Numbered from the stretch's first letter, positions 3,193 through 60,192 are shown. The stretch: 64,000 nt of DNA from an uncultured virus (IMG/VR IMGVR_UViG_3300025877_000002) (IMGVR_UViG_3300025877_000002); one strand, 5' to 3'. Made by a program: numbers and translations. The notes: generated by a model not told the origin, from the letters alone.

Positions 3193-4134
3193 TTAAAAAT
3201 ATTTTTTATCGGTTCTCTGGCTTAGTGAGAAATCGAGATTTTTGCGTGACGGAGTGATGTTTTGTATTTGAGCATAATTAATTGCCCTTTGTATAATTGC
3301 CCTATATAAGGGCCAAAATTTTAATCCATCTATACAGTGCCTTTCGTTTTTATCGATGAAGTTGAGGACCAGTTCTCCATACTCTTCAGCTAACCTTAAT
3401 TCCGGGAATAGGTATAAACTTGCCTTACTTAATTCCTCCACATTCTCCTTACTTGCACATATCCTGATAACCTCTGTTTTCCTTACGCCCTTGCTATTCA
3501 TTACTGATATAAGGCTTAAGTAGGCTTCGTTTATCTCATGTCTAGTGGTGTGAGTAAAGCGTTTTTTGATAATCTTATAAGCTAATCTTGGTAAGCTAGT
3601 TCCTATCTTTAAATGTTTTTTGAGTTTGTTCTTATCCCGTCGTTTAAAGGCTGAGGGTTCTTGCAATGGCCTTGGTATTATCCTGAAATTGTTCCATCGG
3701 TCAAATTCCATTATTAGATTATAAAAATCCCTTTCCGGGATCTTAATAGAGTTTTTCCATGGAGTGATTTCAGATATTAGCAAATTATCCCTTGAAGAGA
3801 TGTGCCTATATAAAGGGTTATCAATTTCCTGCACTGCTTTACTTACCGACATCCTTTTGATAATGGTAAGTTCAAAATATTCCTTAAGGTCAGCTGATAT
3901 CCTTATTCCCTTTGGGATTAATTCCCCGTACTCATCGAAATGGTATTGGAATATTTTTAGGAATTTCTTTGCTCTGTCCTTTATCTCGATAAGTTTGTAA
4001 TGGGATTTTTTCATGATCTCCCCTGATTTCCAGGTAGACTTCTTTAAACCCAAATTTAACCGTAATGAGAGCTGCTCATCCTCGGTTAGGATCATCCAAG
4101 CTTTATTGTCCTTGTTTAAGTTTATATTCCTCAT
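3193..4134 (-). CDS. Putative transcription regulator with an N-terminal sigma-70 region-4-like HTH
   Basis: LTEDEQLSLRLNLGLKKSTWKSGEIMKKSHYKLIEIKDRAKKFLK resembles the sigma r4 pattern; coupled to the nusG-like gene. Confidence 0.45.
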   Translation of the reverse strand: MRNINLNKDNKAWMILTEDEQLSLRLNLGLKKSTWKSGEIMKKSHYKLIEIKDRAKKFLKIFQYHFDEYGELIPKGIRISADLKEYFELTIIKRMSVSKAVQEIDNPLYRHISSRDNLLISEITPWKNSIKIPERDFYNLIMEFDRWNNFRIIPRPLQEPSAFKRRDKNKLKKHLKIGTSLPRLAYKIIKKRFTHTTRHEINEAYLSLISVMNSKGVRKTEVIRICASKENVEELSKASLYLFPELRLAEEYGELVLNFIDKNERHCIDGLKFWPLYRAIIQRAINYAQIQNITPSRKNLDFSLSQRTDKKYF

Positions 4135-4868
4135 ATCTCTATTTCGGGTTGAGAATTATCAACTATTTTCCTTCCTTTAAATTTCAATTCCTCAATACTC
4201 TTTTCTCGAATCGGCTCTATCCTATGGTCACCCCGATAAATTGAGTAAAACACATTATGAAATGATACAGTTGCTTCCTTAGTGTAGGATTCAATGATCA
4301 GCTCTACCTTCACTTCCTGTTTCTTGTGGTCTATGGAAATTATCTTAGCTTCCATGTCCTGCCAAGGGTAACCCATAAGAGTTATGTGGCATCCAGCTTG
4401 CAGGTTATGAAGATCGGAGCAATCGTATATTATTGTCTTACTTGCTTCTATTTCCAACCTCTTTATCTCCTCTTCCGATGCAATGGCTATCTTCACATAC
4501 TGCTTAGGTCTTTCGGCCTCTTCCTCAGGGTCTTTTAGTTTAAAACGATGTCTCAGTATCCTTGATGCTGAGTTATCTTTTACCCATTGATATATTACTG
4601 GTAACCTATCACGAAGGGTAGTAAAAAATTCGGGGTTCCTTAGGTAGGTAATGGGTACTCTAAAGAATCCGTAGTTAAACAGCAAGGGTACATTCTGAAA
4701 TTCGTTTTTCTGTTTAAAGGTTTTCTTTAGGATCTTTACAGTCGGAATGTATGCCTTGATGTTATCGTAGTCTTCATATTTATCAAGTTGTTCCTGTACC
4801 TTGTCAACTTGATCGCTATCTATATAGGCAACTACCCAGATATGCTCTATTTCTTTTTTCTTGGCCAT
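4131..4868 (-). CDS. nusG: NusG/UpxY-family transcription antitermination factor
   Basis: NGN-like N-terminus (WVVAY...AYIPT...PLLFNYGFFRV) and KOW-like C-terminus (GCHITLMGYPWQDMEAKIISID...VKVEL). Confidence 0.8.
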   Translation of the reverse strand: MAKKKEIEHIWVVAYIDSDQVDKVQEQLDKYEDYDNIKAYIPTVKILKKTFKQKNEFQNVPLLFNYGFFRVPITYLRNPEFFTTLRDRLPVIYQWVKDNSASRILRHRFKLKDPEEEAERPKQYVKIAIASEEEIKRLEIEASKTIIYDCSDLHNLQAGCHITLMGYPWQDMEAKIISIDHKKQEVKVELIIESYTKEATVSFHNVFYSIYRGDHRIEPIREKSIEELKFKGRKIVDNSQPEIEI

Positions 4869-5386
4869 AACGGGGAGTTTTTAAGTCGTTTCCTACAATC
4901 TCTATAAGATAGGTTAAAAAAATCTGTGCTCTTTAGGATAACTAAACTCTCATCAGGGGTATGAAGAGAAAGTGATAATGGTGCAGCCAAGAGTTTATCT
5001 CTTAGTATGACCCATACTTCATATTTCATCAATACAAAGTGCAAATCCCGGGGCATACCATTATACCGCATGAAAAGAACGGGTATCTTTGGATTTCCTT
5101 TTTGTGAGTCGCCTTTGCATTGTTCCCAAAATTCTAGGATCTTGGGTTCCTTTAAATAAAGGAGGTGTTCAAAGTTAATTTCATTGTGATTCTTTGCTTC
5201 AATGGAGAATGGAAAATAGTGCCCCTCAGTTGTACAAACTAGGTCCCCGGCTACTTGTGAGTTTTTCCAATTTAGGCCTCCAGAAGAGGGTGTTCGAGCG
5301 AATTCTTTACCGGTCCACTGTTTAAACAGTTTCCCAAGCATTCGTTCGTTCTTACTACCCTTGGTTCGTGAATTGATTCTTGCCAT
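4847..5386 (-). CDS. Holliday junction resolvase (Hjc-type PD-(D/E)xK nuclease)
   Basis: NSRTKGSKNER, RTPSSGG, GDL, IEAKN motifs. Confidence 0.8.
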   Translation of the reverse strand: MARINSRTKGSKNERMLGKLFKQWTGKEFARTPSSGGLNWKNSQVAGDLVCTTEGHYFPFSIEAKNHNEINFEHLLYLKEPKILEFWEQCKGDSQKGNPKIPVLFMRYNGMPRDLHFVLMKYEVWVILRDKLLAAPLSLSLHTPDESLVILKSTDFFNLSYRDCRKRLKNSPLWPRKKK

Positions 5387-5442
5387 AGTCTGTGCCGATA
5401 TATGTGATTAAATAGAAATACAAGATCAGTTAACCCGGCTTT

Positions 5443-7263
5443 TTACGCTAGTCTGGTTCTTCCTTTGGATTTCAAAGGCAGGTACAGACTTGATCCGCTA
5501 GGATTAAAGGAAGCTAGGTGAGTAATGATCCATACCGATTTATTCTCGGCTTTTTGCTGAATGAGTTCTGATACAACTTCTATATTGCTTTCATCCAAGC
5601 TTTCAAATACCTCATCCATAAGTAAAAGGTTAGTTGCTTTCTCAAGTGACATAACATCGTGAATGGCAAAGGCTAAGGCTACATTGGCTAACTGTTGTTC
5701 CCCACCAGAAAGATCATCATAGGTTTGTTCAAAGCCATCCCGAGTTATAGTAGTAATAAAGTCCCGTTTAGGTGAATCCATATCAATGGAGAAGTTTATC
5801 CTAAATGGTATTATTTTCTCATAGTTTTCCAACTGCTCATTTACCAACCCAAGCATGTAATCGAAGATAAAGGCCTTAATACCCGAATTGGAAAGGGGTA
5901 CTTTTATTAACCAATTAAGTGTTTCCAACTTCTTAGTTAATTTTTTAACTGAAAGGGCTAATGGCTGGATATCTTGGGAAAGGATTTGTATCCTTTTCTT
6001 AATGGGTTTTAGTTTTATGGTAAATTTCCTTGCCTTTATAGCCTTAATCTGTTGCTTATATTGTTTTATGTCTTTAGCAATACTTTCCTGCTCTCTAAGG
6101 GTAGCTTCTAGTCTACTAAGATTTTGTTTATTTCTATCAATATCATCTTTAACTGACTGTAAACTAGCAAGTTCTGCATCTAAGTCCTTTAATCCCTTTT
6201 TACTAACCGTAATCTCATCGAGTGTAGAGAAGTATTCCTTCTTTAATTTTGCTATATCTGATTTGATCAGATCAGTCTGTTCTTTATACCCCCCATGAGA
6301 TAAGAGAGCACCGCATGTTGAACATTTAGTTGGGAGAGGGAATTTAGCTTTTAATTTTTGGATTAGTTTCTGTGTATCTGCAGCCTTGCCTTGTTGCGAC
6401 TCCAGCTTCATATCCTGTTTAAACCGAGTTCTCTCTAACTCCTTTACTTCATCGGCTTGGTTATCCAGGATACTGAAAGCTGCCTTTAACCTTGCTATCT
6501 CCTTCCTAATTGATTCTGGGTCTTTAAACCTTTTCTCCTGTACTCTTAGTTTGGATTCAATTACAGATATTTCAGCTTCCTGTTGGCTTTTAAACTTGTT
6601 CTTGGCTTTAACAGATTCCTGCAATCTTTCCTCCAGTTCACTTCTTGATTGTAGCTTGGAGTTTAGGAGAGCACTTAGTTCACTTTCCTCTTTGTGTATT
6701 CCCTCTCTTTGCTCTGCAACTCTTTTCTTAGCCTCATTTATGTAAGATACCTCGAAAGCCTCTTCGAATACTCGTTTTTTATTAGGTCCAGATTCCTCAA
6801 TAATCCTTTTAAGCTTCTGACCGAATACTACTGAGTTAATGAACAACTCATGTGAATAGCCCAGTATACTTGTGATTTCCTTCTGGGTTTCGGGTTTCGT
6901 CCTTAGATCTTTCCTCTCTTCTCCGTCCTGTATTAGGAATAAACGATCTCTACCTTTAATACCCAATACTTTGCCCTTGTATGAGTCACATCGTATGATC
7001 TGATATTTGATACCCTCTTTCTCAAAGGATAGGCTTACCTTAGTTCCCTTATATTTTGGGGGTTGATACTTTTCCCAAGTGTTTACCTTGTTTTTCTTTT
7101 TCAGAGTTTGACCGTAACCTACCCACGAAAAAGCGGAGAAGATTGTAGTCTTTCCGCTTCCGTTTATTGCCTTTAGTATGTTGATACCCTGATGGTCAAG
7201 GTTTATGGTTATTTTGTGTATAGAGCAGAATCCCTCTATCTCTAACTCCCCGAATGTGATCAT
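5443..7263 (-). CDS. SbcC/Rad50-like (gp46-like) recombination ATPase
   Basis: Walker A NGSGKT, coiled coil with CSTC zinc hook, LSGGE signature, Walker B LLLMDE. Confidence 0.93.
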   Translation of the reverse strand: MITFGELEIEGFCSIHKITINLDHQGINILKAINGSGKTTIFSAFSWVGYGQTLKKKNKVNTWEKYQPPKYKGTKVSLSFEKEGIKYQIIRCDSYKGKVLGIKGRDRLFLIQDGEERKDLRTKPETQKEITSILGYSHELFINSVVFGQKLKRIIEESGPNKKRVFEEAFEVSYINEAKKRVAEQREGIHKEESELSALLNSKLQSRSELEERLQESVKAKNKFKSQQEAEISVIESKLRVQEKRFKDPESIRKEIARLKAAFSILDNQADEVKELERTRFKQDMKLESQQGKAADTQKLIQKLKAKFPLPTKCSTCGALLSHGGYKEQTDLIKSDIAKLKKEYFSTLDEITVSKKGLKDLDAELASLQSVKDDIDRNKQNLSRLEATLREQESIAKDIKQYKQQIKAIKARKFTIKLKPIKKRIQILSQDIQPLALSVKKLTKKLETLNWLIKVPLSNSGIKAFIFDYMLGLVNEQLENYEKIIPFRINFSIDMDSPKRDFITTITRDGFEQTYDDLSGGEQQLANVALAFAIHDVMSLEKATNLLLMDEVFESLDESNIEVVSELIQQKAENKSVWIITHLASFNPSGSSLYLPLKSKGRTRLA

Positions 7264-8210
7264 TGTGTTGAGTTTAGTACTTTGATTAATGCCTTCTTAA
7301 AATGTTTTTCCTTTACTTCTGTGTGTTCTAGGTATTTCTTAGCCAATTTAACCCGATCAAGTTTTGCATCGAATTTAGCCCCCTGAAATAATTCCCTTGG
7401 TTTGGGTATTACTGTGTAAAAATGGCCATCTTCGGGAATTGGCTGACCCTCTTCAATATCGATGAACTTGGGTAGTCCTAATTTTATTTTCTTGGGCTTA
7501 GCATCAGAGTAGATTTCCCAATATCCTAAGTCTAACCCCTTTTCAGATCTCGTCTGTTGATATGGTGCACCTAAGATATAGGTATTCTTTGAGAATTTTT
7601 GGGGCTTATGTATGTGTCCGTCAATTACAAGGTCGAAGTGTTTAAAATACTTTGTCCTCATATTCTCTACTTCATCAATTACATGGCCGAAAGCATCTGT
7701 TGCTCCGGGTAAGTCTGTATGGAGCATTAGAATGTTGTACCGATCATCCTTGGCTTGTGGTATATACCCTTTGAGAGTTTTGATTAAACCCTTATTCCCA
7801 GTTAAGTAGGGAATACCGAATACCCTGATATCACTGAATTCCTTTACCTTGAAATCTAGGCACTGAATAGCGTGGGGAGCAAGATTTTCGAGAGAACTGA
7901 TGTAAGAGGGTGAGCCGTGGTCCACAGTGTTCTTTTCACTCATATCATGATTACCCGATATAGCCCATATTATGGTATTAGTTAGTTGGGGTGATAGCAT
8001 CACTGATAGGTAACTGAGTACTTTGTTATCTATAGCCTTCTCGTTATGGATAAGGTCACCCGTAAATAATAAGGGTACTTCTCTTTCTTGTGCCATCATC
8101 CGTAATCTCCAGATTATATCCAATGCAGCCTTCATCCTGCTATCATCCTTTGAAAAAGCCTTCCATCGATGAAGGTGAAGGTCACTAAATGCTAATGCGA
8201 CTAATTTCAT
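7260..8210 (-). CDS. SbcD/Mre11-like (gp47-like) metallophosphoesterase nuclease
   Basis: SDLH, GDL, GNHD, GHIH motifs; adjacent to the SbcC-like gene. Confidence 0.92.
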   Translation of the reverse strand: MKLVALAFSDLHLHRWKAFSKDDSRMKAALDIIWRLRMMAQEREVPLLFTGDLIHNEKAIDNKVLSYLSVMLSPQLTNTIIWAISGNHDMSEKNTVDHGSPSYISSLENLAPHAIQCLDFKVKEFSDIRVFGIPYLTGNKGLIKTLKGYIPQAKDDRYNILMLHTDLPGATDAFGHVIDEVENMRTKYFKHFDLVIDGHIHKPQKFSKNTYILGAPYQQTRSEKGLDLGYWEIYSDAKPKKIKLGLPKFIDIEEGQPIPEDGHFYTVIPKPRELFQGAKFDAKLDRVKLAKKYLEHTEVKEKHFKKALIKVLNSTQ

Positions 8211-8448
8211 TTCGTCCTCCTAATAGGTTAATGTCTGTGTGTCTCCAAATTAATAAGTCAATCTCGTAGGCTATGAATAGCTGGGCTATTAGGATATTTA
8301 TCTCAGTTGCTAACCTTAGGTTATCGGGGTACTTCTTAATGACTGAGGCATAGATGAATTCATGGGGTATCCCTTCTACTCCTGCTTGGACAACCAACTT
8401 AAGGCAAGCTGCTCTTAATCTGTCCCAATCTTCCTGAGTTATTCCCAT
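8185..8448 (-). CDS. Hypothetical protein
   Basis: Fills the gap in the operon with short overlaps at both ends. Confidence 0.5.
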   Translation of the reverse strand: MGITQEDWDRLRAACLKLVVQAGVEGIPHEFIYASVIKKYPDNLRLATEINILIAQLFIAYEIDLLIWRHTDINLLGGRNEISRISI

Positions 8449-9320
8449 ATCCTTAGGAATTGCAATTTACGAAATGATAGTATGTGATATTCATCGCAAA
8501 TCTTAAACAAAGCCGGTTTATTGATCTCGGGTTGTTTGTCATCCTTGAAGAATTTGAGTTTAGCCTTAGCCATGTGCAACTTATTATAATAAGCAAGATC
8601 TATGAGTTGCCTATTGGTTGCATAAAGCTGTTCTAGTTTTTCTTTGTCGATTCCTTTGTGTGTTTTATTACTACTTAAGAAATTTTCAATACTAGAGTGC
8701 TCCTTTAGGAACTGTTTTCCTCTTACTTCGCCAATTCCAGGATAGCCTTTAATATTATCAGAATTATCGCCAACCAAACAAAGATAATCCACGCAAGAGC
8801 TGGGATTATATGCCTTTTTTTCGTATAGGTTACTCGGGGTGAGAATATCTCCACTAGCATTATATATGCGGACAGTATCAGAGATAAGTTGGTGGAAATC
8901 TTTATCATTAGAGGCAATGATAACCCTGCGATCTTCAAATCGCTTAGCAAGCATGTAAATAACATCATCGGCTTCGTATTTTATATTGTGTAATTGTTTT
9001 ACCCCCAATGTATGGAATACCTCCATAACCTTGTCCCGTTGCTTATAGAAATCCTCAGGATCGAAATTTCGGTTGTAAGCCCTGTGACCTTTGTAATCGG
9101 GGCAAAGTCCTAACCTGATTTTTGATTTTTCACCATCCCAGACTAGGTATACTCTTTTGGGCTTAAACTTTTTAATCATTGACCCAACTAAATTGGGTAA
9201 CCCGTAAATGATAGATACAGGTTTACCCTTGTTATTTAGCCTTGCCATTGAGTGGTAAGACCGATGGGCTAAATTATTGCCATCTAGGATTAGTACGTCT
9301 GTTTTCATGATTTTAACCAA
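8439..9320 (-). CDS. 5'-3' exonuclease / flap endonuclease (Pol I N-terminal / T4 RNase H-like)
   Basis: LDGNN, YKGHR, EADD, SNDKDFHQL, GDNSDNIKGYPGIG motifs. Confidence 0.93.
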   Translation of the reverse strand: MVKIMKTDVLILDGNNLAHRSYHSMARLNNKGKPVSIIYGLPNLVGSMIKKFKPKRVYLVWDGEKSKIRLGLCPDYKGHRAYNRNFDPEDFYKQRDKVMEVFHTLGVKQLHNIKYEADDVIYMLAKRFEDRRVIIASNDKDFHQLISDTVRIYNASGDILTPSNLYEKKAYNPSSCVDYLCLVGDNSDNIKGYPGIGEVRGKQFLKEHSSIENFLSSNKTHKGIDKEKLEQLYATNRQLIDLAYYNKLHMAKAKLKFFKDDKQPEINKPALFKICDEYHILSFRKLQFLRIWE

Positions 9321-9820
9321 GATATAGGTTTATCTTCATGGATATGAATTTTATCCCCCGCTGTTTTGTGATTGTATAATTTCTGTCTTACCTGGGTACA
9401 GATGTCTTGGGCATACTCTTTTAAATTAACCTCACTTTCAAATTCCCCGGCCTCATTGAAGCACATGAGAATATGTTTGTGTTCCCTTTTTTCTACCTTA
9501 AACAGTTTAAGTTTATCAGACCTTTTGAACCTTACCGAATATTGGGTTATTACGTGGTTGGTGGGTATCCGGGATAAAGATAACTCTTGGGCTCCCGTTA
9601 TTTTTTCAGGGGGATTAGGAATAAACTCTTCAGGGGGTACATTGGGTATCTCTACTACGGGTTGGTATTTTAAAAGGGGTTTTGTTTCCCTCTTTATTAT
9701 TACATTGATAGCTGAGTCAAGTATAGAGTAATCCTCCTCTAGGGATTTAATCTTGGATAATATATCGCTTTTTAAAGCTTCCAGGTTATGGATGGCCTTT
9801 TGTTTTGCTTCTGTTTCCAT
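9305..9820 (-). CDS. Hypothetical protein
   Basis: 171-aa ORF with an N-terminal coiled coil. Confidence 0.6.
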   Translation of the reverse strand: METEAKQKAIHNLEALKSDILSKIKSLEEDYSILDSAINVIIKRETKPLLKYQPVVEIPNVPPEEFIPNPPEKITGAQELSLSRIPTNHVITQYSVRFKRSDKLKLFKVEKREHKHILMCFNEAGEFESEVNLKEYAQDICTQVRQKLYNHKTAGDKIHIHEDKPISWLKS

Positions 9821-9841
9821 AAAGATGTTTATTAATAATAG

Positions 9842-10969
9842 TTATTCCTCAACTTCGGATTTTGCTGCTTTAACTGGAAACATATTGTAATTTATGGCAT
9901 CCAATTTTTTCTGGGTACGGCTGATTGTATTGATCCTGGATTTCTTGATCAACTCTGACCTAAGATCTGAATCTTCTCTGAGGTTGGCCATAAGTTTTTC
10001 TTCGGAAGTCCCCACGACTTTGCTCTTATAATAATATCGGGAGGAACCTTTTTGTCTCTCAAGAACCCCGAGTGAAACCAAGACTTCGGGTAACCCAATA
10101 TAACGATCGAACCCAATTTGATTTCCGTCTTCTTCTGAAAAATATACCTGAGTTTCTGTACGAGTTCTTGGTGGTCCAGTTTTGTCCTTCTTAGTAGTAA
10201 TGTAGACATTTTTTCCTACGATTATTTGTTGTCCTTTTTTCTTGATCTTAATGGCTTTGCTTCCCCAAACCGATACCCTTTGTGAGGCATAGAATTTAGT
10301 TGCAGTACCCCCTGGAGTAATGTCAGGATCTTCATATTTGGAAGCCCCCACCTTTTTACGAAGTTGGTTAATCAGTACAACTGTTATACCCAACCTTTTG
10401 AACTCCATGTTCCGTTCTCTTAAGAAGTCTCCTATCTTACGAGCTCTTACACCCATCTCCGATTTTTTATCCATTTGAGGCATACCTTCCAATTCTAAGG
10501 TTGTTAGAGCAGCTAATGAATCTAATACGAATAAAATGGGTTCATTATTGGTTAATTGGGATCTTACTAGTCTCCCCATATCTAACACCCAATCTGCAAT
10601 TGTTTCAATTGCAACTACGCCTTCTAGAAGTCTTACCTTTGATAGGTCAATCCCATTTTTGAGCATCCAGAGTTTATCGAAGGCATTCTCCACATCAGCC
10701 CAAAGTCCTACACCCCCTAATTGTTGGGTACAGTATAGTAGGTCTGTAGCTAGCAGGGATTTACCTGAAGACTCTGGCCCAAATAGTTCTAGGATCTTTC
10801 CATAAGGAACTCCACCGTTCAATTGCCAGTTTAATCGGATTAACCTTGAAGGTATTCGCAATGATACTTTATCATCGGATAGCAATTCTGCGGCAATTCC
10901 GCTTGAAGGGTATTTCTTTGCTAACTTGGCTTCGGTCATTAGCCCCGATTTTACTTTCTTCTTTGCCAT
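9842..10969 (-). CDS. recA: RecA/UvsX recombinase
   Basis: GGVPYGKILELFGPESSGKS Walker A, VLDSLAAL Walker B, INQLR, PGG..KFYAS. Confidence 0.95.
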   Translation of the reverse strand: MAKKKVKSGLMTEAKLAKKYPSSGIAAELLSDDKVSLRIPSRLIRLNWQLNGGVPYGKILELFGPESSGKSLLATDLLYCTQQLGGVGLWADVENAFDKLWMLKNGIDLSKVRLLEGVVAIETIADWVLDMGRLVRSQLTNNEPILFVLDSLAALTTLELEGMPQMDKKSEMGVRARKIGDFLRERNMEFKRLGITVVLINQLRKKVGASKYEDPDITPGGTATKFYASQRVSVWGSKAIKIKKKGQQIIVGKNVYITTKKDKTGPPRTRTETQVYFSEEDGNQIGFDRYIGLPEVLVSLGVLERQKGSSRYYYKSKVVGTSEEKLMANLREDSDLRSELIKKSRINTISRTQKKLDAINYNMFPVKAAKSEVEE

Positions 10970-10986
10970 GTTTTTTGGGTTAAACT

Positions 10987-11012
10987 AAAAGAGAGGCCGA
11001 AGCCCCTCTTTT
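10987..11012 (-). terminator. Intrinsic terminator
   Basis: GAGGGGC-TTCG-GCCTCTC-TTTT: cUUCGg hairpin followed by a U tract. Confidence 0.8.
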
Positions 11013-11035
11013 GTGATTAAAATAGAATTGAAAGA

Positions 11036-11329
11036 TTACCAACCGTCACCGGCTTTGGCAGCACCTGATTTGATAGCAGCTTGGGCCTTTTCAAGGCTCA
11101 TGATAGCTGAAATCTTATCATCTTCGAACTCGGCATCTTCTCCTTTTGCCACGCAACGATTCCCATCACGGTCGATACGGACATGAGCCATTGCTCTGTT
11201 CTTTGCTTTCTCAGCTGCAGCCTTTAATTGATCGGCGGTTGCAGCGGCATTTTTGGCTTTCAATGCTTTCTTAAGGCGACTAGCCATGGCCATGTTATAG
11301 CCTCTTACTGGTTCTTTTACTGTTGACAT
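11036..11329 (-). CDS. Small Ala/Lys-rich protein
   Basis: 97-aa ORF followed by a terminator. Confidence 0.7.
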   Translation of the reverse strand: MSTVKEPVRGYNMAMASRLKKALKAKNAAATADQLKAAAEKAKNRAMAHVRIDRDGNRCVAKGEDAEFEDDKISAIMSLEKAQAAIKSGAAKAGDGW

Positions 11330-11342
11330 GATTTATTTTAGA

Positions 11343-11597
11343 TTAAGGATTTATTACTGATAATGATACTGGTGGGTGTCCGGGAGCATAGATTTCGAGT
11401 TTTATTTTCCTTGTTTCACCTAAGGCTTGAAATTCCTCCTCGGTTAACTCCCATACTGAAATCCATTTGTTAACTGCTCCTGCTGTCATAAGAGCTACTT
11501 CCAATTGGCAGGGGAACCCGGAGTTGCATTCCGCATCAGTCATATTATCCGGTTTGTTTAGGATATGAGTCCTTTCAGGGAATTCTACTGGGTTCAT
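11343..11597 (-). CDS. Hypothetical protein
   Basis: ATGA overlap with the SSB-like gene. Confidence 0.65.
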   Translation of the reverse strand: MNPVEFPERTHILNKPDNMTDAECNSGFPCQLEVALMTAGAVNKWISVWELTEEEFQALGETRKIKLEIYAPGHPPVSLSVINP

Positions 11598-12337
11598 AGG
11601 TCCTTCTTTTTCTTTTTCTTTTTCTTAACCGAACCTTCTCCCGAAGATTTCTTTTTAGGTTTTTCATCCCCTTCATCCAAAGAACCTCCAGCAAGGAATT
11701 GCTTTAAGATTTCCTTAGATTGCTCATAAGTCGGTACTAACTTACGAACTACATCTTCAGGGTTAATGATTTGACGGAATTCTTTTGCCAGTTTTGAAGG
11801 CTTGCACTGAATAGCATTGTACTTGGTGTTTTTCTGGCCTTGGCCACTTCGTTTGATTTTTACATCAAACCCATTGATCGGATCAGTAAAGTCTCCACCT
11901 TCCTCATCAAGGTACATATCAAGCAATTGCTGATATACATCTTTGATAAGTATCGCCGGTTTACAAGCATTGTCTGTGTCAACCTCTTTACCTTTATCAT
12001 CCTTGAATGGGACTGCAATAACAATGAATCGCTGTTTAGGGAATACCTTGTTAGCCATTTCATTATCAGACTCATCTGAAGAAGCTTTCATCTTCTTGTG
12101 GAAATCCATTACTGCGCATTTCTCACCAAATGTAGCCGGAGAGATGTAGCTTCTGATTTTATCACCGAGCCAGAAGAAAACTACTTCTGCACCCCAGTCA
12201 TTATCTTCTCCTGGTGGTACTATCCGGATTCTTTTAGTACCATCCTTAAAGAGGATGAATTGCCAGCCTTCGCCAGAAGACTCAGCCAATTTCTTTTGTT
12301 TTTCCCGCAGTCGTGTTGCGAGGTCCTTTTTAGCCAT
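11594..12337 (-). CDS. gp32-like single-stranded DNA-binding protein
   Basis: RIRIVPP, DFTDPINGFDVKIKRSGQG..TKY pattern; lies between the uvsY-like and recA genes. Confidence 0.7.
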   Translation of the reverse strand: MAKKDLATRLREKQKKLAESSGEGWQFILFKDGTKRIRIVPPGEDNDWGAEVVFFWLGDKIRSYISPATFGEKCAVMDFHKKMKASSDESDNEMANKVFPKQRFIVIAVPFKDDKGKEVDTDNACKPAILIKDVYQQLLDMYLDEEGGDFTDPINGFDVKIKRSGQGQKNTKYNAIQCKPSKLAKEFRQIINPEDVVRKLVPTYEQSKEILKQFLAGGSLDEGDEKPKKKSSGEGSVKKKKKKKKDL

Positions 12338-12358
12338 ATTGTTAGTTATTGGAATTGT

Positions 12359-12817
12359 TTATACTTCTTTTCTTGTATTAGCACTGATAGTTTGAATCAT
12401 TTGTTGCCTTCCCTCGAATGCTCTTACGCAAGCATATATAAGGGATTCCTGACCCCTTGCTTCTATGAAGGTATCCTCGGCCTTTTTATAATCTCGGCTT
12501 ATGTTTGCTTTCTCCTTGCAAAGATCATCAGAATAAGGACGGTTAGTCTTTGGGTTATTCATCCCCTTATATTTAATATAAGCTCGAGAATATTCCCTCT
12601 TCATCTCTGTTTCCAACTGGGCTACGTGACGGGCCAATTTCTTATGAAGCATGGCCAGAAAAGCATAGGCAGAGGGTTGCATTAAAGCTTCGTGGGTTAT
12701 TTTGTCAGGATCAATAACCATTTCCTCATGGAGGTTGTATTTGATAAGTTCCCCTTGCCATTTTATTTCTATATTCATAAGCCCAGAAGTCCGGGCATGT
12801 TTTACCAATTTCCTCAT
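12359..12817 (-). CDS. UvsY-like recombination mediator
   Basis: Helical 152-aa protein ending in ISANTRKE; context next to SSB and RecA. Confidence 0.6.
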   Translation of the reverse strand: MRKLVKHARTSGLMNIEIKWQGELIKYNLHEEMVIDPDKITHEALMQPSAYAFLAMLHKKLARHVAQLETEMKREYSRAYIKYKGMNNPKTNRPYSDDLCKEKANISRDYKKAEDTFIEARGQESLIYACVRAFEGRQQMIQTISANTRKEV

Positions 12818-12847
12818 AATAAGTTTCCTTATATTATAATAGCATTC

Positions 12848-13426
12848 CTATTTAGTATTCAAGTATTGAAATACTATTCTCTTCCTTTCATCTAAATCAT
12901 AGGTCTCTATCAATAAAGGAGTTAGGTAATTCATAGCTTGATCCATACGATATTCCTCAGCTGCATACTTCATCATCTCCCAAGTCATTTTCTGATATTG
13001 CAGATTTTGAATTCTTACTCCATCCTCTTCAGGGTTTGTGTAAAGAGGGGGTATCATGATCAGGTGGGTGCATCGGTGACATACAGCCAAAGTTTTAGAG
13101 ATGAAGGCTACAGTTTCTTGTTCGGTGTTAAAAGCTGAATTTTGAAGTAAAAAGTAGGCAATACTATCCACAAATGAACGATCCATTACGTATGAATCTC
13201 CCATGGATAGTTGGGACCTCTGAGCTAGAAGCTCATACTGGTACATGTTACCTTTCACAATGTCGGCGGCAGTCATTTTAATGATGTCGCTATGGCTTTC
13301 GCATCCATATAATTTTCTAAGCCCTGGTCCATCTGTATGGATATAGGGTATACCAAATTGTTCGGCTATAAATTTGGCTAATGTTGTTTTACCGGCTCCA
13401 CTCGGGCCGCAAATTTGTATTTTCAT
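12848..13426 (-). CDS. P-loop (deoxy)nucleoside monophosphate kinase
   Basis: GPSGAGKTT Walker A, DRSFVD, EDGVR lid. Confidence 0.8.
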   Translation of the reverse strand: MKIQICGPSGAGKTTLAKFIAEQFGIPYIHTDGPGLRKLYGCESHSDIIKMTAADIVKGNMYQYELLAQRSQLSMGDSYVMDRSFVDSIAYFLLQNSAFNTEQETVAFISKTLAVCHRCTHLIMIPPLYTNPEEDGVRIQNLQYQKMTWEMMKYAAEEYRMDQAMNYLTPLLIETYDLDERKRIVFQYLNTK

Positions 13427-13593
13427 AGTTCGTCTTTTAAAATTGCGTAGTTTTCTTTAATATAGGCTTTTAATAGAGGATCACTAAGTCCGTTAGCCCA
13501 AAGGTAAAGTAGATAATCAGCGGGTACATTTGCTAATTTTGTTCCTTTATGCTTACCAAAAGGCATGGGAGTATTATCATCGTATTTTTTCAT
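13423..13593 (-). CDS. Small DUF3820-like (MPFGKHKG) protein
   Basis: MPFGKHKG...VPADYLLYL motif; ATG at 13593 overlaps the polymerase stop (ATGA). Confidence 0.75.
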   Translation of the reverse strand: MKKYDDNTPMPFGKHKGTKLANVPADYLLYLWANGLSDPLLKAYIKENYAILKDEL

Positions 13594-15737
13594 CGGTTTA
13601 GTAGTTTTGTGTAATCTTCTTCTGGATGGTAGCCCCGAAGTTGTCCCCAGTTCCAAGAGGCTTCGGCATTTACCTGCATTTTAACTTTTTTCATCTCAAA
13701 TCCGAAATATTTCATTGTACTCGGGTTTGCACATATCTCAACTAACTTTGGGACTAATTCATGTATGTATTCTGGATATATATAGAATCCAATTGAATCA
13801 TGGACATTGTATACTTCTTGTACTATCCCCCTTAGATTCCCCCTCTTTCTTTCCTGCCTAACAATTACAGAACTAAATGTCCCGAATTGAGCAGCACTAC
13901 CCTGCACTGGAGCATTGGTGGATTGCCGTTGAGCCTGAAGCATAAGGGAGAAGTTGTGGCTATCGATATTTGGTAGCCTTCGTTTCTGCCCAAACATGGT
14001 TGTAACAAATCCCTGTTTCTTTACCAACTTATGTTGGCTATCCATGAATTTTTTGATTCTCGGGAAATCTTTAAACCAATCTTTCATGTATTGTTCTGCT
14101 TCGGCTACGCTAACGACCTCCCCGTCCTTCTCTAGTGTCTCCTTTAACATCTTGGGTGATTGTTCATACAAGATACCAAAGTTGATAGTCTTAGCTCGCT
14201 TTTTACGCTTAGTCCAGTACACGTGATCCGGGTGATCCTCATCCTTGGTTATCTTAAGAATCTCATCGTAACGATCTTCAACTTTATTGGCTCTGCAAGC
14301 TGAGGCAACGTGAACATTCCTTCCGATTCTAAACCATTCGATCATGGTTTTTTCATTAGCCCATTCTGCAACTATCCTAAGCTCGGCTTGGGAATAATCG
14401 ATCTCTAAGAGTATAGTTCCCGGTGGAGCAATGAACATCCGTTTAATATCGGATGAGGTAGTATCTCGGGGAACGTTTTGAAGATTGGGTTCAACGCAAG
14501 AAAGTCGACCTGTAACAGTACCATGCAATTTAAAGCTCGGGTGTACCCTGTTTTGGTCATCAAGTATCTCATAGATTCCCTTGATATATGTTGAGTATAG
14601 TTTTTGCAGTCCCCGTAACTCTAGCAGAGCATCAATGAACCCGTGCTTATCTCTTTTTTTCAGTTTGAGTAAAGTTTCTTCGGCAGTACTTGGGTTATCG
14701 GTTGGTTTCTTATCCTTAAGTGTGTAATCTAAGATTGGGAATCTGAAGCCCCGTTTACTTCGGTATAAGAGATTGATAAGTTGGGGAGGGGAGCCAAGAT
14801 TAAGACCTGTATAAGTTTCCTTAGCCGAGGTATTACCCATGATGATCCGATCTATTTTATCCTCTCGGTTCTTTTTGAGTTTTGCATAGTTTTTAGCATC
14901 CTCATCTAGGTCATCGATCTCATCTTGGATTTTGGCAATTATCTTTTTAATAAAATCCTTTTTAGCCCTCTTTTCGAAACGTTTTATAATGGGCAAGGAC
15001 ATTACCTGATTCTGTTTATCGGCTATCTTCTTTTCATACTCCTGTATGAGGTTAGTAAGATAGGGTTTATCGATTAAAGCTCCTTCATATTCGCATTCTG
15101 CTAAGCCCCTTGATCTAGGCATATACATATTACGATACAGGGAATAGAATCCGTTTTTAATTAACTTCTGCTCTAACCAGATATAAGCCTCGAATTCAAG
15201 GGTACAATCTAAAGCACAATATTTAGCAAGGGGTTCTATCGGGACATTACCCCAGCCACCATGTTTCTTTACTAATGAGTGGATCTCATCTTCATAGCCG
15301 AAATATTTCGGTATATAGTTTCCCACAAAGGATTTAAGGTCATTGGGTCGTTCTTCATCAAGTAAATATTTGGCGAGCATCCCATCGAAGAAGCGACCAA
15401 TAATTTTACAGCCATAACGAAATAACCATTTCTCCTCGAATTTACCGTTCCAAGCAATTTTTGTAATAGCCGGGTCCTCAAGTACCATTCGAGAGAACCT
15501 ACGTAACCGTTTTTCCCAATTACCCTTCCATGGTGAATCCTTATGACCGAGGGGAATAATCCAGGCTGACCCAATTTGGAATGACACTCCGAGTATTGTT
15601 GGATACTTTTCTGGATCATGAAATTCGAGTCCATTAGTTTCGAAGTCAATACAGGCATACCCGGTTTGCTTGCAGTGGGCGATGAGTTGATCGAGTTCTG
15701 CATCAGATGAAATTAATTTGAACGGTACGCCCTTCAT
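13590..15737 (-). CDS. Family A DNA polymerase with 3'-5' exonuclease
   Basis: DFET (ExoI), NGKFE (ExoII), YCALD (ExoIII), TVTGRLS..PNLQN, DYSQAELR (A), KTINFGILY (B), VHDS (C). Confidence 0.96.
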   Translation of the reverse strand: MKGVPFKLISSDAELDQLIAHCKQTGYACIDFETNGLEFHDPEKYPTILGVSFQIGSAWIIPLGHKDSPWKGNWEKRLRRFSRMVLEDPAITKIAWNGKFEEKWLFRYGCKIIGRFFDGMLAKYLLDEERPNDLKSFVGNYIPKYFGYEDEIHSLVKKHGGWGNVPIEPLAKYCALDCTLEFEAYIWLEQKLIKNGFYSLYRNMYMPRSRGLAECEYEGALIDKPYLTNLIQEYEKKIADKQNQVMSLPIIKRFEKRAKKDFIKKIIAKIQDEIDDLDEDAKNYAKLKKNREDKIDRIIMGNTSAKETYTGLNLGSPPQLINLLYRSKRGFRFPILDYTLKDKKPTDNPSTAEETLLKLKKRDKHGFIDALLELRGLQKLYSTYIKGIYEILDDQNRVHPSFKLHGTVTGRLSCVEPNLQNVPRDTTSSDIKRMFIAPPGTILLEIDYSQAELRIVAEWANEKTMIEWFRIGRNVHVASACRANKVEDRYDEILKITKDEDHPDHVYWTKRKKRAKTINFGILYEQSPKMLKETLEKDGEVVSVAEAEQYMKDWFKDFPRIKKFMDSQHKLVKKQGFVTTMFGQKRRLPNIDSHNFSLMLQAQRQSTNAPVQGSAAQFGTFSSVIVRQERKRGNLRGIVQEVYNVHDSIGFYIYPEYIHELVPKLVEICANPSTMKYFGFEMKKVKMQVNAEASWNWGQLRGYHPEEDYTKLLNR

Positions 15738-16155
15738 ATTTTCTTATGTATATATCCTTAAAATCTAATACTTTAGAATCCATTTCCCTGTAAGTGTCTC
15801 GGTAACAGATAGCCCCTACTCCAGCTTGTACGATCAGCTCTTGGCACTTTCTACAGGGGAAGTGTGTAATGAAAAGAGTGGAACCCTCTAATGAGATCCC
15901 ACTCCTTGCAGCAAAGGCAATTAGGTTAGCCTCTGCATGTATTGCCTCAATGCAGGTTTTATCTAGAGGGCAAGAGCATTTACCATCTCCTCTTACTAGG
16001 AGAGGACCGTTATACCCCGTAGCTATTATCCTGTTATCTCTTACAGCTACTGCCCCAACATTTAACCTTCCACATGTATTGCGGAGGGAAAATACTTCGG
16101 CAGTAGCCATATAAACTTCATCCCTATCTGGACGTATCCTTTTCTGATCTGACAT
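15703..16155 (-). CDS. dCMP deaminase family protein
   Basis: IATGYNG, HAEAN, PCRKC zinc motifs. Confidence 0.92.
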   Translation of the reverse strand: MSDQKRIRPDRDEVYMATAEVFSLRNTCGRLNVGAVAVRDNRIIATGYNGPLLVRGDGKCSCPLDKTCIEAIHAEANLIAFAARSGISLEGSTLFITHFPCRKCQELIVQAGVGAICYRDTYREMDSKVLDFKDIYIRKYEGRTVQINFI

Positions 16156-16858
16156 CTTCTATACATTTTTTAAGCAATGGCCAATCCCTTTTATAGGAGT
16201 GAAGAGAAGTAATGTTATGGTAAAGCATACCCACTTTCATGTTTGTGCATCTTGCCACGTATTCTAATAACTTCCAAGCTAAGGCAACATCTACCCCAAA
16301 GTGGGTCATTACATCGCAACTCCTCATGTAATAAATTAAGTTTAGTTTCCCATTACGATGAACGAATTGGTAAGAGATAGAACAAGGTACTCTTTTTTTC
16401 CCACCCATTACCGCATTATCTAAATGCTGATCCCAAATCATAATCATACACTGCCTTGAATCGGGGTGTTTCACTAATTCTTTTAGGACATTATCAATCT
16501 GGGCAAATATCCTTTCTGAGTAGGTGTAATCAAATTTTGCCAGCCCATTTAAGAATTGATCCCATACATCATGTCTCTCTAGGAAAGAATGGCCGGGGTT
16601 AAGAGGTCTTCTAGATGTTCGATCCAGAATTTCGGCATTAACATAGGCTTTCATCCGGGGATCAGCAAGATAAAGGTAATCTTCTTTATCCAAAGATTCC
16701 AGGGCATAGGAGTAGTTTAGTATCTCCCGAGTCATCATTTCTGGATCATCCTTGATGACTTTGTTTTGGTAGGTATCAGTGTGAACCTCAGTTCCCATCT
16801 CCCAACAATCCCGATGTATTTCGCTAATCAGTTCGTAGCAATTTTTGTAGATTCTCAT
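16124..16858 (-). CDS. Thymidylate-synthase-fold enzyme, predicted dCMP (hydroxy)methyltransferase
   Basis: DSRQ, catalytic PC (Cys159), RSCD, SLHSY; Asp190 at the position of ThyA Asn177 / T4 gp42 Asp179. Confidence 0.8.
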   Translation of the reverse strand: MRIYKNCYELISEIHRDCWEMGTEVHTDTYQNKVIKDDPEMMTREILNYSYALESLDKEDYLYLADPRMKAYVNAEILDRTSRRPLNPGHSFLERHDVWDQFLNGLAKFDYTYSERIFAQIDNVLKELVKHPDSRQCMIMIWDQHLDNAVMGGKKRVPCSISYQFVHRNGKLNLIYYMRSCDVMTHFGVDVALAWKLLEYVARCTNMKVGMLYHNITSLHSYKRDWPLLKKCIEDVRSEKDTSR

Positions 16859-16891
16859 AGTTGATATTAAATAGATTTCCTTTTTATAGTA

Positions 16892-17761
16892 TTATAATCC
16901 GTTTTGTTGTTGACGGTATATCTTTCTTTGCCGACTAGTTACCACATGTTCTGGGTAAAGGGGGACTAGCATAAGCTTAAGGTTCCCGGCAAGTAAGGGC
17001 TTAGTTCTGGATAAAGCTTCTCCATCGGCATGAGTCTGAAGTTGGAGTACTGCCCGCCTGTTGGATTTATATTTAATCTCTAGGGGGTCAACTGTTTTGT
17101 ATCGGTTAAGAGTTTTTAAGATCCGTTCTTGAAAAGGGCCCTGTGGATGAACTGAAGCCATGAGCTTATCAATAGGTTTGTAAGTGTCATACATACTGAA
17201 GGTTTCAGCTGTGATGTAGGAATAGGGGGCAAAGAAATTAATACTAAAATGACTGCCGTCACCGTAGACATACTCGCCAATTCTGTGCACAAGTAGGAGA
17301 TCGATGAGAAACCTTTTAGTGAGTTCTGTGGCTCTGGTATGGAAATTAAGTACAGGCCAATCAGAACCTGGCCTACGGCTAAATACGATAGAAATAAGGC
17401 AATCTTTTCCATTTGTATGTGAGTTTGCAAAGTGATAACTTAAACTGTAGTTCTTTGACTTTTTGGACTCTCTAGTTTTAATGTCCGCAGCAATCAAATC
17501 TAAGTAATTCATATCAACATAATTACGCACTAGAGAAGTCCATTTTTGAATCTTGTAACCGAACATTCGGCCAAAGTCAAATTCAGGGTCTACCCAGCTC
17601 TTTCGGATATGAACGAAGGTGTCATTCATAATCATTTGAGTCCCGAATTTATTAATGCCCTGTTTCTTGGCAAGGAATAATTCATTCTGGGCTATGAACT
17701 TATTTAAACCCGACCAAGCTGATTGGGAAGTTTTAAACTCGAATTCGTTTATTTTCTCCAT
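16892..17761 (-). CDS. Divergent thymidylate-synthase-fold paralogue
   Basis: KDCLISIVFSR (Cys121) and RATELTKRFLID (Asp154) align with the TS PC...RSxD...N/D segment; HxY motif absent. Confidence 0.6.
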   Translation of the reverse strand: MEKINEFEFKTSQSAWSGLNKFIAQNELFLAKKQGINKFGTQMIMNDTFVHIRKSWVDPEFDFGRMFGYKIQKWTSLVRNYVDMNYLDLIAADIKTRESKKSKNYSLSYHFANSHTNGKDCLISIVFSRRPGSDWPVLNFHTRATELTKRFLIDLLLVHRIGEYVYGDGSHFSINFFAPYSYITAETFSMYDTYKPIDKLMASVHPQGPFQERILKTLNRYKTVDPLEIKYKSNRRAVLQLQTHADGEALSRTKPLLAGNLKLMLVPLYPEHVVTSRQRKIYRQQQNGL

Positions 17762-18591
17762 TAGTATTTAGATTGGATTCGGAATGCGTTTACCTTGTTT
17801 TTCTTGAAGTAGATTAGGAATAGGGAATCAGGGGTCATGCCCAAGAAATCCATTAAGTTAAAGAATGCTAACCAAGCTTCCATAATCTCAACATGAAACC
17901 GAGTAGAGTCAGTTACCATGTGACTTTGTTTCCATGGCTTATTCTTTAGGAAGTTACGGGAAATATTTAAGTGATATACTACCTTCCACATCATAACTTC
18001 CATCTGCATGTGATAGTCCGGATCAATAACTCGGCCACCTCTTAGGAATTCATCCTTAACCTTATCATCGGGGATTACCTTAAATGAAGTTTCCCACAAT
18101 TTAGGAGTTAAGAACTTAAGAGCATTCACCTGCTTAGCAAAGGCCATAGCTGTTTTCAGTGGATCTTGCCCACCGTACCAAAACGCATCCTTCATTTTTG
18201 CCTTAGTCAGGAGTACATCATAGTAGCTAACCACATCATCATAATCTAGGTTTACATAGATCATAGTTTCCAACAAGAAGTGAAGTGAATCACTTAATTC
18301 CTCGTTAAAATTTTGCAAGTGAGATTCTATGCCGTCCAACTCATTCTTGTTCAACATCTCAATCATCATCAGGTGAGATTCCATAGCTTCTGCTAATTCC
18401 TCTACCACCCTTCCAATAAAATCCTTAATTAGTAATTGATCGGGCTTTGAATTCATAGAGATAGGATACATAGGTATCTTCTCTATTTTTACATAGTCAT
18501 TGATCAACTCCTTTTGAAGGTCGAACATTCTCTTCAACCCAGATCCATCCTCGATCATTGGGGGCCTTTCAGTAATATCTCTGATATCCAT
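17761..18591 (-). CDS. All-alpha (dimeric dUTPase / T4 gp56-like) dCTP/dUTP pyrophosphatase
   Basis: EELAEA, EELSDSLHF, KNKPWK, YFKKNKVNAFR motifs. Confidence 0.75.
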   Translation of the reverse strand: MDIRDITERPPMIEDGSGLKRMFDLQKELINDYVKIEKIPMYPISMNSKPDQLLIKDFIGRVVEELAEAMESHLMMIEMLNKNELDGIESHLQNFNEELSDSLHFLLETMIYVNLDYDDVVSYYDVLLTKAKMKDAFWYGGQDPLKTAMAFAKQVNALKFLTPKLWETSFKVIPDDKVKDEFLRGGRVIDPDYHMQMEVMMWKVVYHLNISRNFLKNKPWKQSHMVTDSTRFHVEIMEAWLAFFNLMDFLGMTPDSLFLIYFKKNKVNAFRIQSKY

Positions 18592-18593
18592 AG

Positions 18594-18986
18594 TTATTTT
18601 TGTTTATTTATTTCCTCGATTCTGTGTAAGGGTAATTCATATCGCTTACTTGCTCTTTTCAAAACCTTCTTTAACTCTAGGCCTTCTCCAAGTTTCTTAG
18701 CGATATATTTCTTTACTCTCTTTTCCTTTAGGTCAATTTCAGTATCCTCCATGTCCTTGAAGGATTGCTGCATTTCCAATTTCTGCCTCATTGCTAAACC
18801 CTTATGGGATAAAGCTATTGCACATAACTCAGAATCTCCACATGCTCGGCATTCCTCAGCTTTTAAGTCATGGTGTTTCCCAAAACATGGATCATCAGGA
18901 CCTCCGAACTTTGTAATGTCCAAGGGTTGAAGCATTTGTTCATCAGACAGGTTCTTCCTCTCTTTATTTCTCGACTTACGTTTCAT
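18594..18986 (-). CDS. Hypothetical protein with a Cys cluster
   Basis: DPCFG...ECRACGDSELC. Confidence 0.7.
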   Translation of the reverse strand: MKRKSRNKERKNLSDEQMLQPLDITKFGGPDDPCFGKHHDLKAEECRACGDSELCAIALSHKGLAMRQKLEMQQSFKDMEDTEIDLKEKRVKKYIAKKLGEGLELKKVLKRASKRYELPLHRIEEINKQK

Positions 18987-60153: not shown

Positions 60154-60192
60154 TTTTTTTATTTTAGATTGTAAGTAATAATAAGATAAAAG

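Follow-up and report, generated by a model that had tools for sequence, protein, structure and literature searches.

What might a phage make with two thymidylate synthase (TS)-like proteins encoded next to each other in the operon of its DNA polymerase? The question is raised by a 64,000-nucleotide (nt) stretch of DNA from an uncultured virus (IMG/VR IMGVR_UViG_3300025877_000002; hereafter the window), in which positions 12848–18591 (minus strand) hold seven genes in one tight operon, with neighbors overlapping or nearly touching. The source is a contractile-tailed phage; the window covers most of its genome, and the minus strand encodes nearly all of the replication, structural, and lysis modules. 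One of the TS-like proteins, TS-A, has the residues of TS-family enzymes that act on deoxycytidine monophosphate (dCMP); the other, TS-B, appears to be a divergent TS-fold enzyme. The region is probably a cassette of the T4/Xp12 kind for modifying cytosine nucleotides before replication, set within a replication operon and feeding a modified base into DNA. This reading is built on genes, folds, residue identities, and synteny, from which we infer all of the enzymatic activities as well as the modified base. The seven genes are:

17761–18591, minus strand: dUTPase_2-family all-alpha nucleoside triphosphate (NTP) pyrophosphatase, candidate dCTPase, 276 amino acids (aa) (PF08761, E = 6.2e-9; phrog_12184, 2.8e-24)
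16892–17761, minus strand: TS-B, divergent TS-fold protein, 289 aa (no Pfam match; phrog_34294 "unknown function," 1.3e-10)
16124–16858, minus strand: TS-A, dCMP-type TS-family enzyme (predicted), 244 aa (PF00303, E = 3.7e-19)
15703–16155, minus strand: dCMP-family zinc deaminase, 150 aa (PF00383, 3.1e-19; phrog_174, 1.1e-43)
13590–15737, minus strand: Pol A with 3'-5' exonuclease, 715 aa (PF00476, 1.5e-78; PF01612, 3.2e-13)
13423–13656, minus strand: QSregVF_b/DUF3820 protein, 77 aa as listed, true start possibly further in (PF12843, 1.7e-7)
12848–13426, minus strand: P-loop nucleotide kinase, 192 aa, candidate deoxynucleoside monophosphate (dNMP) kinase (phrog_2107 "thymidylate kinase," 5.2e-13; AAA_28, 1.6e-8)

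An earlier note on this DNA, made from the sequence alone, had listed the same seven genes, and both the list and the positions are correct, all on the minus strand. The stop codon of the pyrophosphatase gene shares 1 nt with the start of TS-B, a 33-nt spacer separates TS-B from TS-A, the last 32 nt of TS-A also belong to the deaminase gene, and the latter in turn overlaps the start of Pol A by 35 nt. In all, 72 window open reading frames (ORFs) were scanned against PHROGs and 30 against Pfam; 14 unannotated ORFs were scanned again against Pfam at a loose threshold, which returned sub-threshold noise only, and the ORFs covered were mostly of 100 aa or more. A DNA search of phage records gave only a 6% match, located in Pol A. 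Related loci were taken from IMG/VR, in which 395 of 568 TS-B pattern matches and 378 of 381 TS-A pattern matches encode a relative; the best 80 of each were analyzed (TS-B-seeded and TS-A-seeded loci). A near-identical 60.5-kb record, G001, rated 71% complete, stands in for the genome of the window phage.

Judged by sequence, TS-A is a true thymidylate-synthase-family enzyme: it matches PF00303 above the curated cut-off and has the TS fold. Alignment with E. coli ThyA and T4 gp42, using the sequences from their genome records, places TS-A Cys159 on E. coli Cys146 and T4 Cys148, Arg179-Ser180-Cys181-Asp182 (RSCD) on E. coli R166–D169, Glu76 on E58 (E. coli) and E60 (T4), His220 and Tyr222 on H207 and Y209, and Arg135 on R126. 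In the Arg126-Arg127 pair, the place of the second Arg is taken by Gln in TS-A and by Lys, Gln, or Asn in relatives. Asp190 lies 31 residues past Cys159 and is the counterpart of E. coli Asn177 and T4 Asp179; the residue at this site (N177 in E. coli numbering) is the established switch between deoxyuridine monophosphate (dUMP) and dCMP, as restated in passages of PMC8670742 and PMC13326640. Among 61 homologues, C159, R179, S180, D182, E76, H220, and Y222 are invariant or nearly so, and the active-site residues do not vary across the 73 complete TS-A ORFs (of 78 matches) of the TS-B-seeded loci or across 80/80 TS-A-seeded loci. Asp occupies the N177 site in every complete TS-A homologue across the 160 loci. 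Thus, the catalytic Cys, RSCD, the HxY motif, and an Asp exactly 31 residues after the Cys, all of which the earlier note had read from the sequence, are confirmed by alignment with both reference enzymes, and the specificity site holds Asp, not Asn. TS-A is ~25% identical to T4 gp42, and its best sequence match in the Protein Data Bank (PDB) is AfhB (3.6e-13). With Asp at the N177 site, TS-A belongs with the dCMP-specific branch of the family and is predicted to use dCMP.

The likely product of TS-A can be approached through published residue rules. Passages of PMC13326640 give D169N as the signature of flavin-dependent 5-hydroxy-dCMP synthases; this substitution is not found in TS-A, in which Asp182 is invariant and the folate-activating Glu76 is also kept. 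Because both residues are kept, hydroxylation by TS-A is rated unlikely, despite AfhB as the best PDB match. The same source describes the L143 position as hydrophobic in methylating and acidic in hydroxymethylating enzymes, and in T4 the residue at this site, Asp145, activates the substrate water (PMC6400193). TS-A has no acidic residue of the T4 hydroxymethylase type at this position, which is occupied by Arg156, invariant in the homologues; since Arg fits neither class, the published product rule is inapplicable to TS-A. The Xp12 5-methyl-dCMP synthase has Asn at the aligned site, so the rule itself appears leaky. In TS, according to passages of PMC6400193, a tail at the C-terminus closes the active site for hydride transfer; T4 dCMP hydroxymethylase (dCH) has no such tail. 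Only 22 residues follow Tyr222 in TS-A (8–35 in relatives, median 18), compared with 55 in E. coli ThyA and 28 in T4 dCH, and TS-A therefore lacks a sealing tail in the manner of the T4 enzyme. The Xp12 synthase can be aligned with the E. coli tail as far as its last residues. No DHFR was found in any of the five related records, and Arg135/Ser180 of TS-A is the deoxyribose-type Arg/Ser pair, not the Lys/Ala of MilA. Of seven deaminase-linked Asp177-type TS enzymes tested elsewhere, five made 5-methyl-dCMP (5mdCMP; passages of bioRxiv 10.1101/2024.12.05.627091). Taken together, the sequence features point tentatively to 5-hydroxymethyl-dCMP as the product, at somewhat under an even chance; a product of some other kind is less likely and keeps a sizeable share because of Arg156, and 5-methyl-dCMP is the least likely of the three.

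TS-B has no Pfam or NCBIfam match, PF00303 is matched by 0/45 family members tested, and a PDB sequence-profile search with TS-B returned chance-level centrin matches only. An AlphaFold2 model built from a 55-member alignment is confident (pLDDT 93, pTM 0.88), and its best matches are all TS-fold enzymes, T4 dCH among them (Foldseek, VIA-align); the flavin-dependent 5-hydroxy-dCMP synthases are the best structural match of TS-B and, tied, of TS-A. A protein-atlas model of TS-B likewise neighbors PF00303 clusters. The earlier note's proposal of a second TS-fold protein is upheld by the confident model, and Asp stands at the specificity site here too. Alignment of the TS-B and TS-A families by hhalign is weak (probability 16%, E = 1.6e-3) and sets TS-B Cys121/Arg143/Glu146/Asp154/Tyr191 on TS-A Cys159/Arg179/Asp182/Asp190/Tyr222; the positions aligned in this way are exactly the conserved residues of TS-B. 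G118, C121, R143, E146, R150, and D154 are identical in 80/80 loci, and K73, Y81, C121, R143, and D154 are invariant in 48 TS-B sequences, down to ~15% identity, with Glu146 nearly invariant. TS-B is found to combine the fold with a nucleophile Cys, a phosphate Arg, and a base-specifying residue in register. It has Gly at the L143 site and Glu146 in place of the pterin-binding Asp, and the broad TS-B alignment, as read by eye and not by a structural test, showed no conserved residue corresponding to the folate-activating Glu58. In the same weak register, Lys100 and Ala144 of TS-B fall at the MilA Lys133/Ala176 sites, with Ser or Thr at 144 in many relatives. The family comprises 239 clusters (E ≤ 1e-3 among 1.84 billion representatives) and is present on at least 395 viral contigs.

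Retention of the nucleophile, the phosphate clamp, and the cytosine-type Asp suggests that TS-B is an enzyme; from sequence and model, it most likely acts in the pathway of TS-A, on dCMP or on the TS-A product, with a chemistry not yet described. A read-through fusion of TS-B and TS-A, which in the window share a frame and are set 33 nt apart by a single TAA, was considered and rejected, as in the relatives the two genes are distinct, lie in other frames, and often overlap. The 33 nt between the two genes (16859–16894, minus strand) contain AAGGA.

The genomic setting ties the two TS-fold genes to each other and to the polymerase. Across 80 loci the order helicase, p130, pyrophosphatase, TS-B, TS-A, (deaminase), Pol A, (kinase), UvsY is kept. 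TS-A is directly downstream of TS-B in 78/80 TS-B-seeded loci, with a 4-nt overlap between the TS-B stop and the TS-A start in 30/78; one of the two exceptions is cut by the contig end, and the other is without TS-A and has Pol A 500 nt downstream. The TS-B-seeded loci encode the pyrophosphatase in 75/80 cases, Pol A in 74/80, the deaminase in 16/80, a kinase of the window type in 12/80, and DUF3820 in 2/80. Conversely, TS-B is present in 76/80 TS-A-seeded loci. Three of the four loci with TS-A and no TS-B belong to a Pol B lineage (L105, L116, and L124), with a Tmk-like kinase, dUTPase_2, (deaminase), and TS-A, and an N6/N4 DNA methylase gene in two of them (L105 and L124). The active-site residues of TS-A are identical in this lineage, indicating that TS-A works without TS-B and that TS-B is an addition of the Pol A lineage. 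In other lineages a Tmk-like kinase is instead encoded upstream of the pyrophosphatase. Between the helicase and the pyrophosphatase, 77/80 loci encode a protein (18594–18986, minus strand, in the window, 130 aa) that matches no family and contains a Cys-rich stretch.

Cultured carriers of TS-B include ten Clostridium perfringens phages and mycobacteriophage Muddy; the C. perfringens phage paper (PMC9815439) is silent on restriction or modification. Two further phage genomes carry recognizable cassettes:

Muddy (KF024728), 34731–37942: cassette gp45–gp49, the same gene set as the window cassette
Human-gut phage MT121960.1 (L003), 3642–13706: trimeric dUTPase, dUTPase_2, TS-B-like protein, ThyX, TS-B-like protein, TS-A, Pol A

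In Muddy, gp49 is the kinase, gp48 a dUTPase_2 protein (2.8e-7), gp45 the deaminase, and gp44 Pol A. The product annotated as hypothetical, gp47, is TS-B-like (hhalign 96.5%, E = 8e-10), with Cys, Arg, and Asp kept and Glu changed to Tyr, and gp46, annotated "thymidylate synthase," is TS-A-like (99.9%), with RVPC, RSCD, and the dCMP-type Asp. In MT121960.1, the first TS-B-like protein has 330 aa and RASD instead of RATE, and the 1421-aa Pol A contains an intein with an HNH endonuclease inside.

The remaining genes of the operon differ in how firmly they belong to the cassette. The 276-aa pyrophosphatase scores 36.8 bits against PF08761 (cut-off 22.9), over residues 218–276 only, and has no PDB sequence match at E ≤ 1. 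T4 gp56, a dCTPase/dUTPase, matches PF08761 too (2e-5), and BLASTP aligns the C-terminal 49 aa of the window protein with gp56 (E = 3e-4). The dCTPase/dUTPase-like assignment made in the earlier note thus holds as to family, shared with the T4 enzyme, and the nucleotide specificity is predicted from that family. A trimeric dUTPase is also encoded in 47/80 and 51/80 of the related loci, which makes it unlikely that the dUTPase_2 protein is just a dUTPase. The deaminase matches PDB entry 2hvv, a dCMP deaminase (1.4e-25), and T4 Cd (1.7e-15), and shares 33% identity with the Xp12 deaminase over 84 aa. It has a dCMP_cyt_deam_1 domain and is encoded in cis with an Asp177-type TS, which makes it a candidate for the 5-methylcytosine (5mC)-selective deaminases (mSCD) of the dCMP deaminase family. 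Selectivity for 5mC in that family is polyphyletic and without a sequence signature (passages of bioRxiv 10.1101/2024.12.05.627091). The kinase has weak cytidylate-kinase P-loop matches besides those to phrog_2107 and AAA_28. The DUF3820 protein is probably not part of the cassette, because it occurs in only 2/80 related loci. All seven genes are present as the earlier note described them; judged by the related loci, the deaminase (16/80) and the kinase (12/80) are not core parts of the module it proposed.

In the route we propose, the dUTPase_2-family pyrophosphatase would convert deoxycytidine triphosphate (dCTP), and perhaps deoxyuridine triphosphate (dUTP) too, to the monophosphate. TS-A would bind dCMP via Asp190, with Cys159 attacking C6, and would place the one-carbon unit of methylene-tetrahydrofolate on C5. 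The product would then be phosphorylated to the triphosphate by the phage kinase together with the host nucleoside diphosphate (NDP) kinase, for incorporation by the phage Pol A. The deaminase, where present, would move part of the (modified) cytosine nucleotide pool into the uracil/thymine series, and TS-B, an addition confined to the Pol A lineage, would be a second, catalytically competent TS-fold enzyme whose pocket is of the cytosine type.

Several observations weigh against this reading or against its fullest form. Arg156 of TS-A is neither acidic, as in the T4 type, nor bulky and hydrophobic; the hhalign match between TS-B and TS-A is weak taken alone, and the residue equivalences of TS-B rest on it together with the fold; the deaminase and the window-type kinase are missing from most related loci; and no glycosyltransferase or other post-replicative modifier was found in the PHROGs and Pfam scans of the window ORFs. 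The window also encodes, outside the cassette, a protein of a family that acts on cytosine in DNA:

57447–58469, minus strand: C5-cytosine DNA-methyltransferase-like protein, 340 aa (PF00145, 6e-18; TIGR00675, 3.1e-13)

Aligned with M.HaeIII, this protein has PDCG for PPCQ and MENL for AENV; we take PDCG and MENL/ENL to be the catalytic motifs of C5-cytosine methyltransferases. A PF00145 gene is present in the window and in 4/4 relatives that are at least 90% complete and carry the TS-A/TS-B cassette. The gene argues against full replacement, because a methyltransferase of this kind would have no substrate if every cytosine were C5-substituted. This conserved gene does not figure in the earlier note and sits awkwardly with complete C5 substitution. 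Beside it, on the opposite strand (58526–58879, plus strand), is a second nucleotide pyrophosphatase, of the MazG type (PF03819, 2e-7; phrog_229, 8.4e-21). C-containing palindromes are depleted in the window, with observed/expected (O/E) ratios of 0.34 for GCGC, 0.16 for CGCG, and 0.73 for CCGG, and ATGCAT and CATATG are absent (~9 and ~10 sites expected); such avoidance is unexpected if all cytosines are shielded, which is soft evidence. The O/E ratio of CCTAGG in the window is 0.21. Together, the methyltransferase-like gene and the palindrome avoidance suggest that cytosine is not fully replaced; both may be reconciled with partial replacement, with another role for the methylase-like protein, or with a cassette that supplies thymidylate.

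That last alternative, which we consider unlikely, is that TS-A makes 5-methyl-dCMP, that the deaminase turns it into deoxythymidine (dT) nucleotides, with TS-B perhaps performing a covalent, Cys-mediated deamination, and that virion DNA contains ordinary cytosine. As the earlier note stated, no Asn-type ThyA, ThyX, or glycosyltransferase was found among the 72 window ORFs scanned (PHROGs; a subset against Pfam), and the search of the remaining genome for thyA/thyX that it called for, run on the 71% complete G001, gave one PF00303 match and no PF02511 match, so that neither an Asn-type ThyA nor a ThyX was found in the window or in this record. ThyX is also lacking from the near-complete relatives with a deaminase (2/2) and present in one of the two without it; this complementarity involves four complete relatives, too few to decide, and ThyX occurs in the flanks of only 2/160 loci. 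The mSCD deaminases convert 5-methyl-dCTP (5mdCTP) to deoxythymidine triphosphate (dTTP), and most of the deaminase-linked TS enzymes assayed (five of the seven cited above) made 5mdCMP (passages of 10.1101/2024.12.05.627091); the conserved C5-methyltransferase and the palindrome avoidance would likewise fit DNA with ordinary cytosine. Yet 64/80 TS-B loci have no deaminase within 6 kb, and the complete relative G005 is without both deaminase and ThyX and nonetheless keeps TS-A and TS-B. MT121960 keeps the TS-fold set beside its own ThyX, inside the cassette, so the TS-fold enzymes there are not needed for deoxythymidine monophosphate (dTMP), which argues against the set being merely a thymidylate route. 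The tail-less C-terminus of TS-A and the lack of DHFR in the five related records also stand against thymidylate supply, and Xp12 combines this route with complete replacement of cytosine by 5mC.

Two other explanations concern the TS-fold proteins themselves. It is established that TS enzymes work as obligate dimers whose subunits share active sites (passages of PMC5175136), and TS-B might be a partner without a reaction of its own, non-catalytic or regulatory, that joins TS-A in a TS-like heterodimer and perhaps supplies cross-subunit phosphate-binding residues or tunes specificity. The adjacency of the two genes in 78/80 loci, their coupling by the 4-nt overlap in 30/78, and the Gln, Lys, or Asn that TS-A and its relatives have for the second Arg of the Arg126-Arg127 pair all fit such a partnership, which we nevertheless rate as rather improbable: the Cys, phosphate Arg, and base-specifying Asp are the most conserved residues of the TS-B family, a pattern of an enzyme and not of a scaffold, the Pol B lineage has TS-A with identical active-site residues and no TS-B, and some phages carry two TS-B-like genes. 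It is less probable still that TS-A belongs to the flavin-dependent 5-hydroxy-dCMP synthases, as those of RB69 and HY126 do, and gives 5-hydroxycytosine-based DNA, despite the structural resemblance to these enzymes. By the rule in passages of PMC13326640 the diagnostic D169N is missing, with Asp182 invariant in TS-A and Glu146 in TS-B, TS-A keeps Glu76, the E58 equivalent, and the window ORF scans found no glycosyltransferase or NDP-sugar genes.

A pre-replicative cytosine-modification cassette, the reading we prefer, has close precedents. In MetaGPA, domains of TS, phosphoribosyl-ATP pyrophosphohydrolase (PRA-PH), and dCMP deaminase co-occur on modified-cytosine contigs (eLife 2021, passages of PMC8670742). 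According to passages of Yang et al. (10.1101/2024.12.05.627091), 104 of the 149 deaminases encoded on contigs with predicted modified cytosine have a TS within 3 kb, the predicted product of 85% of those TS is 5-hydroxymethyl-deoxycytidine (5hmdC) or 5-methyl-deoxycytidine (5mdC), the commonest neighboring domains are PRA-PH, Pol A, and Pol A exonuclease, and many of the deaminases prefer 5mC, converting 5mdCTP to dTTP as in Xp12. The window cassette resembles the MetaGPA and Xp12 cassettes in gene content and order around the polymerase, in the Asp177-type TS, and in the deaminase in cis, for which the published reading, in the passages cited, is that cytosine is replaced by a C5-modified cytosine and part of the pool is deaminated to dT. 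In Xp12, the genes for PRA-PH, TS, deaminase, and DHFR are consecutive. In contrast to these systems, the pyrophosphatase here is a dUTPase_2 (PF08761) protein and not PRA-PH, and an additional gene, TS-B, separates the pyrophosphatase from the TS; unlike the Xp12 enzyme, TS-A is without the C-terminal tail and has Arg (Xp12: Asn) at the L143 site, and DHFR was found in 0/5 related records. The text passages of PMC8670742 and 10.1101/2024.12.05.627091 cited here make no mention of a second TS-fold gene, and a literature search found no paper on such a TS-fold pair.

T4 offers the same four enzyme classes (gp56 dCTPase, gp42 dCMP hydroxymethylase, gp1 dNMP kinase, and Cd deaminase), and gp42 and TS-A share the Cys, the Asp179-type residue, Asp171/Asp182, and the absence of a C-terminal tail; they differ at the water-activating Asp145 of T4, which is Arg156 in TS-A. 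Unlike T4, the window has no glucosyltransferases and places its genes in one operon with a family A polymerase, and T4 has no counterpart of TS-B. RB69 gp48, DLP3 gp80, and HY126 AfhB (PDB 9iqc/9iqu; passages of PMC13326640) are likewise TS-fold proteins of ~240 aa that act on dCMP with Asp at the N177 site; these flavin-dependent 5-hydroxy-dCMP synthases have D169N, for which TS-A has Asp182 and TS-B Glu146, and genes for arabinose or hexose transfer are lacking here. In contrast to the MilA/BcmA cytidine monophosphate (CMP) hydroxymethylases, with Lys133/Ala176 in MilA, TS-A has Arg135/Ser180.

The non-canonical dTMP route put forward in the earlier note is a known proposal, partly demonstrated for an Asp177-type TS with a deaminase in cis and building on Xp12 (passages of 10.1101/2024.12.05.627091), and is thus not new. 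Its cytosine-modification interpretation is partly supported, by the dCMP-type Asp in both TS-A and TS-B, the gp56-family pyrophosphatase, and an operon logic parallel to those of T4 and Xp12, and was largely anticipated in print; TS-A joins the dCMP-type TS group as a new member, with an unusual Arg at the product-determining site. Elsewhere in the window, G+C content falls to 0.31 at 60001–62000 (~0.40 elsewhere) and GC skew is positive from ~58 kb, which possibly mark an early-gene or origin region, or a genome end.

For TS-B, a bolder reading may be set beside the one above, at a low probability comparable to that of thymidylate supply: that it is a new catalytic branch of the TS fold, in which Cys121 would activate a cytosine nucleotide without using folate in the manner of TS, as argued from Glu in place of the pterin-binding Asp, Gly at the L143 site, and the lack of a visible Glu58 counterpart. 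As one possible example, TS-B would reopen 5-hydroxymethyl-dCMP made by TS-A to an exocyclic methylene intermediate and capture another nucleophile. Phages that carry the pair, such as Muddy and the C. perfringens phages, would then have an undescribed C5-substituted cytosine in their DNA, and the C5-methyltransferase-like enzyme could be a post-replicative tailoring enzyme and not a methylase.

TS-A adds one lineage to the published cytosine-replacement cassettes and is ordinary alone. The point of interest is TS-B, which is widespread, unannotated, and invisible to Pfam, has the cytosine-specific TS triad, and is tied to TS-A and the polymerase. It occurs in cultured phages in which its role can be tested, one of them a mycobacteriophage used in therapy, and would, if the proposal is true, represent a new TS-fold reaction and perhaps a new DNA base. 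Base modification bears on restriction escape, sequencing, engineering, and immune sensing of therapeutic phage DNA.

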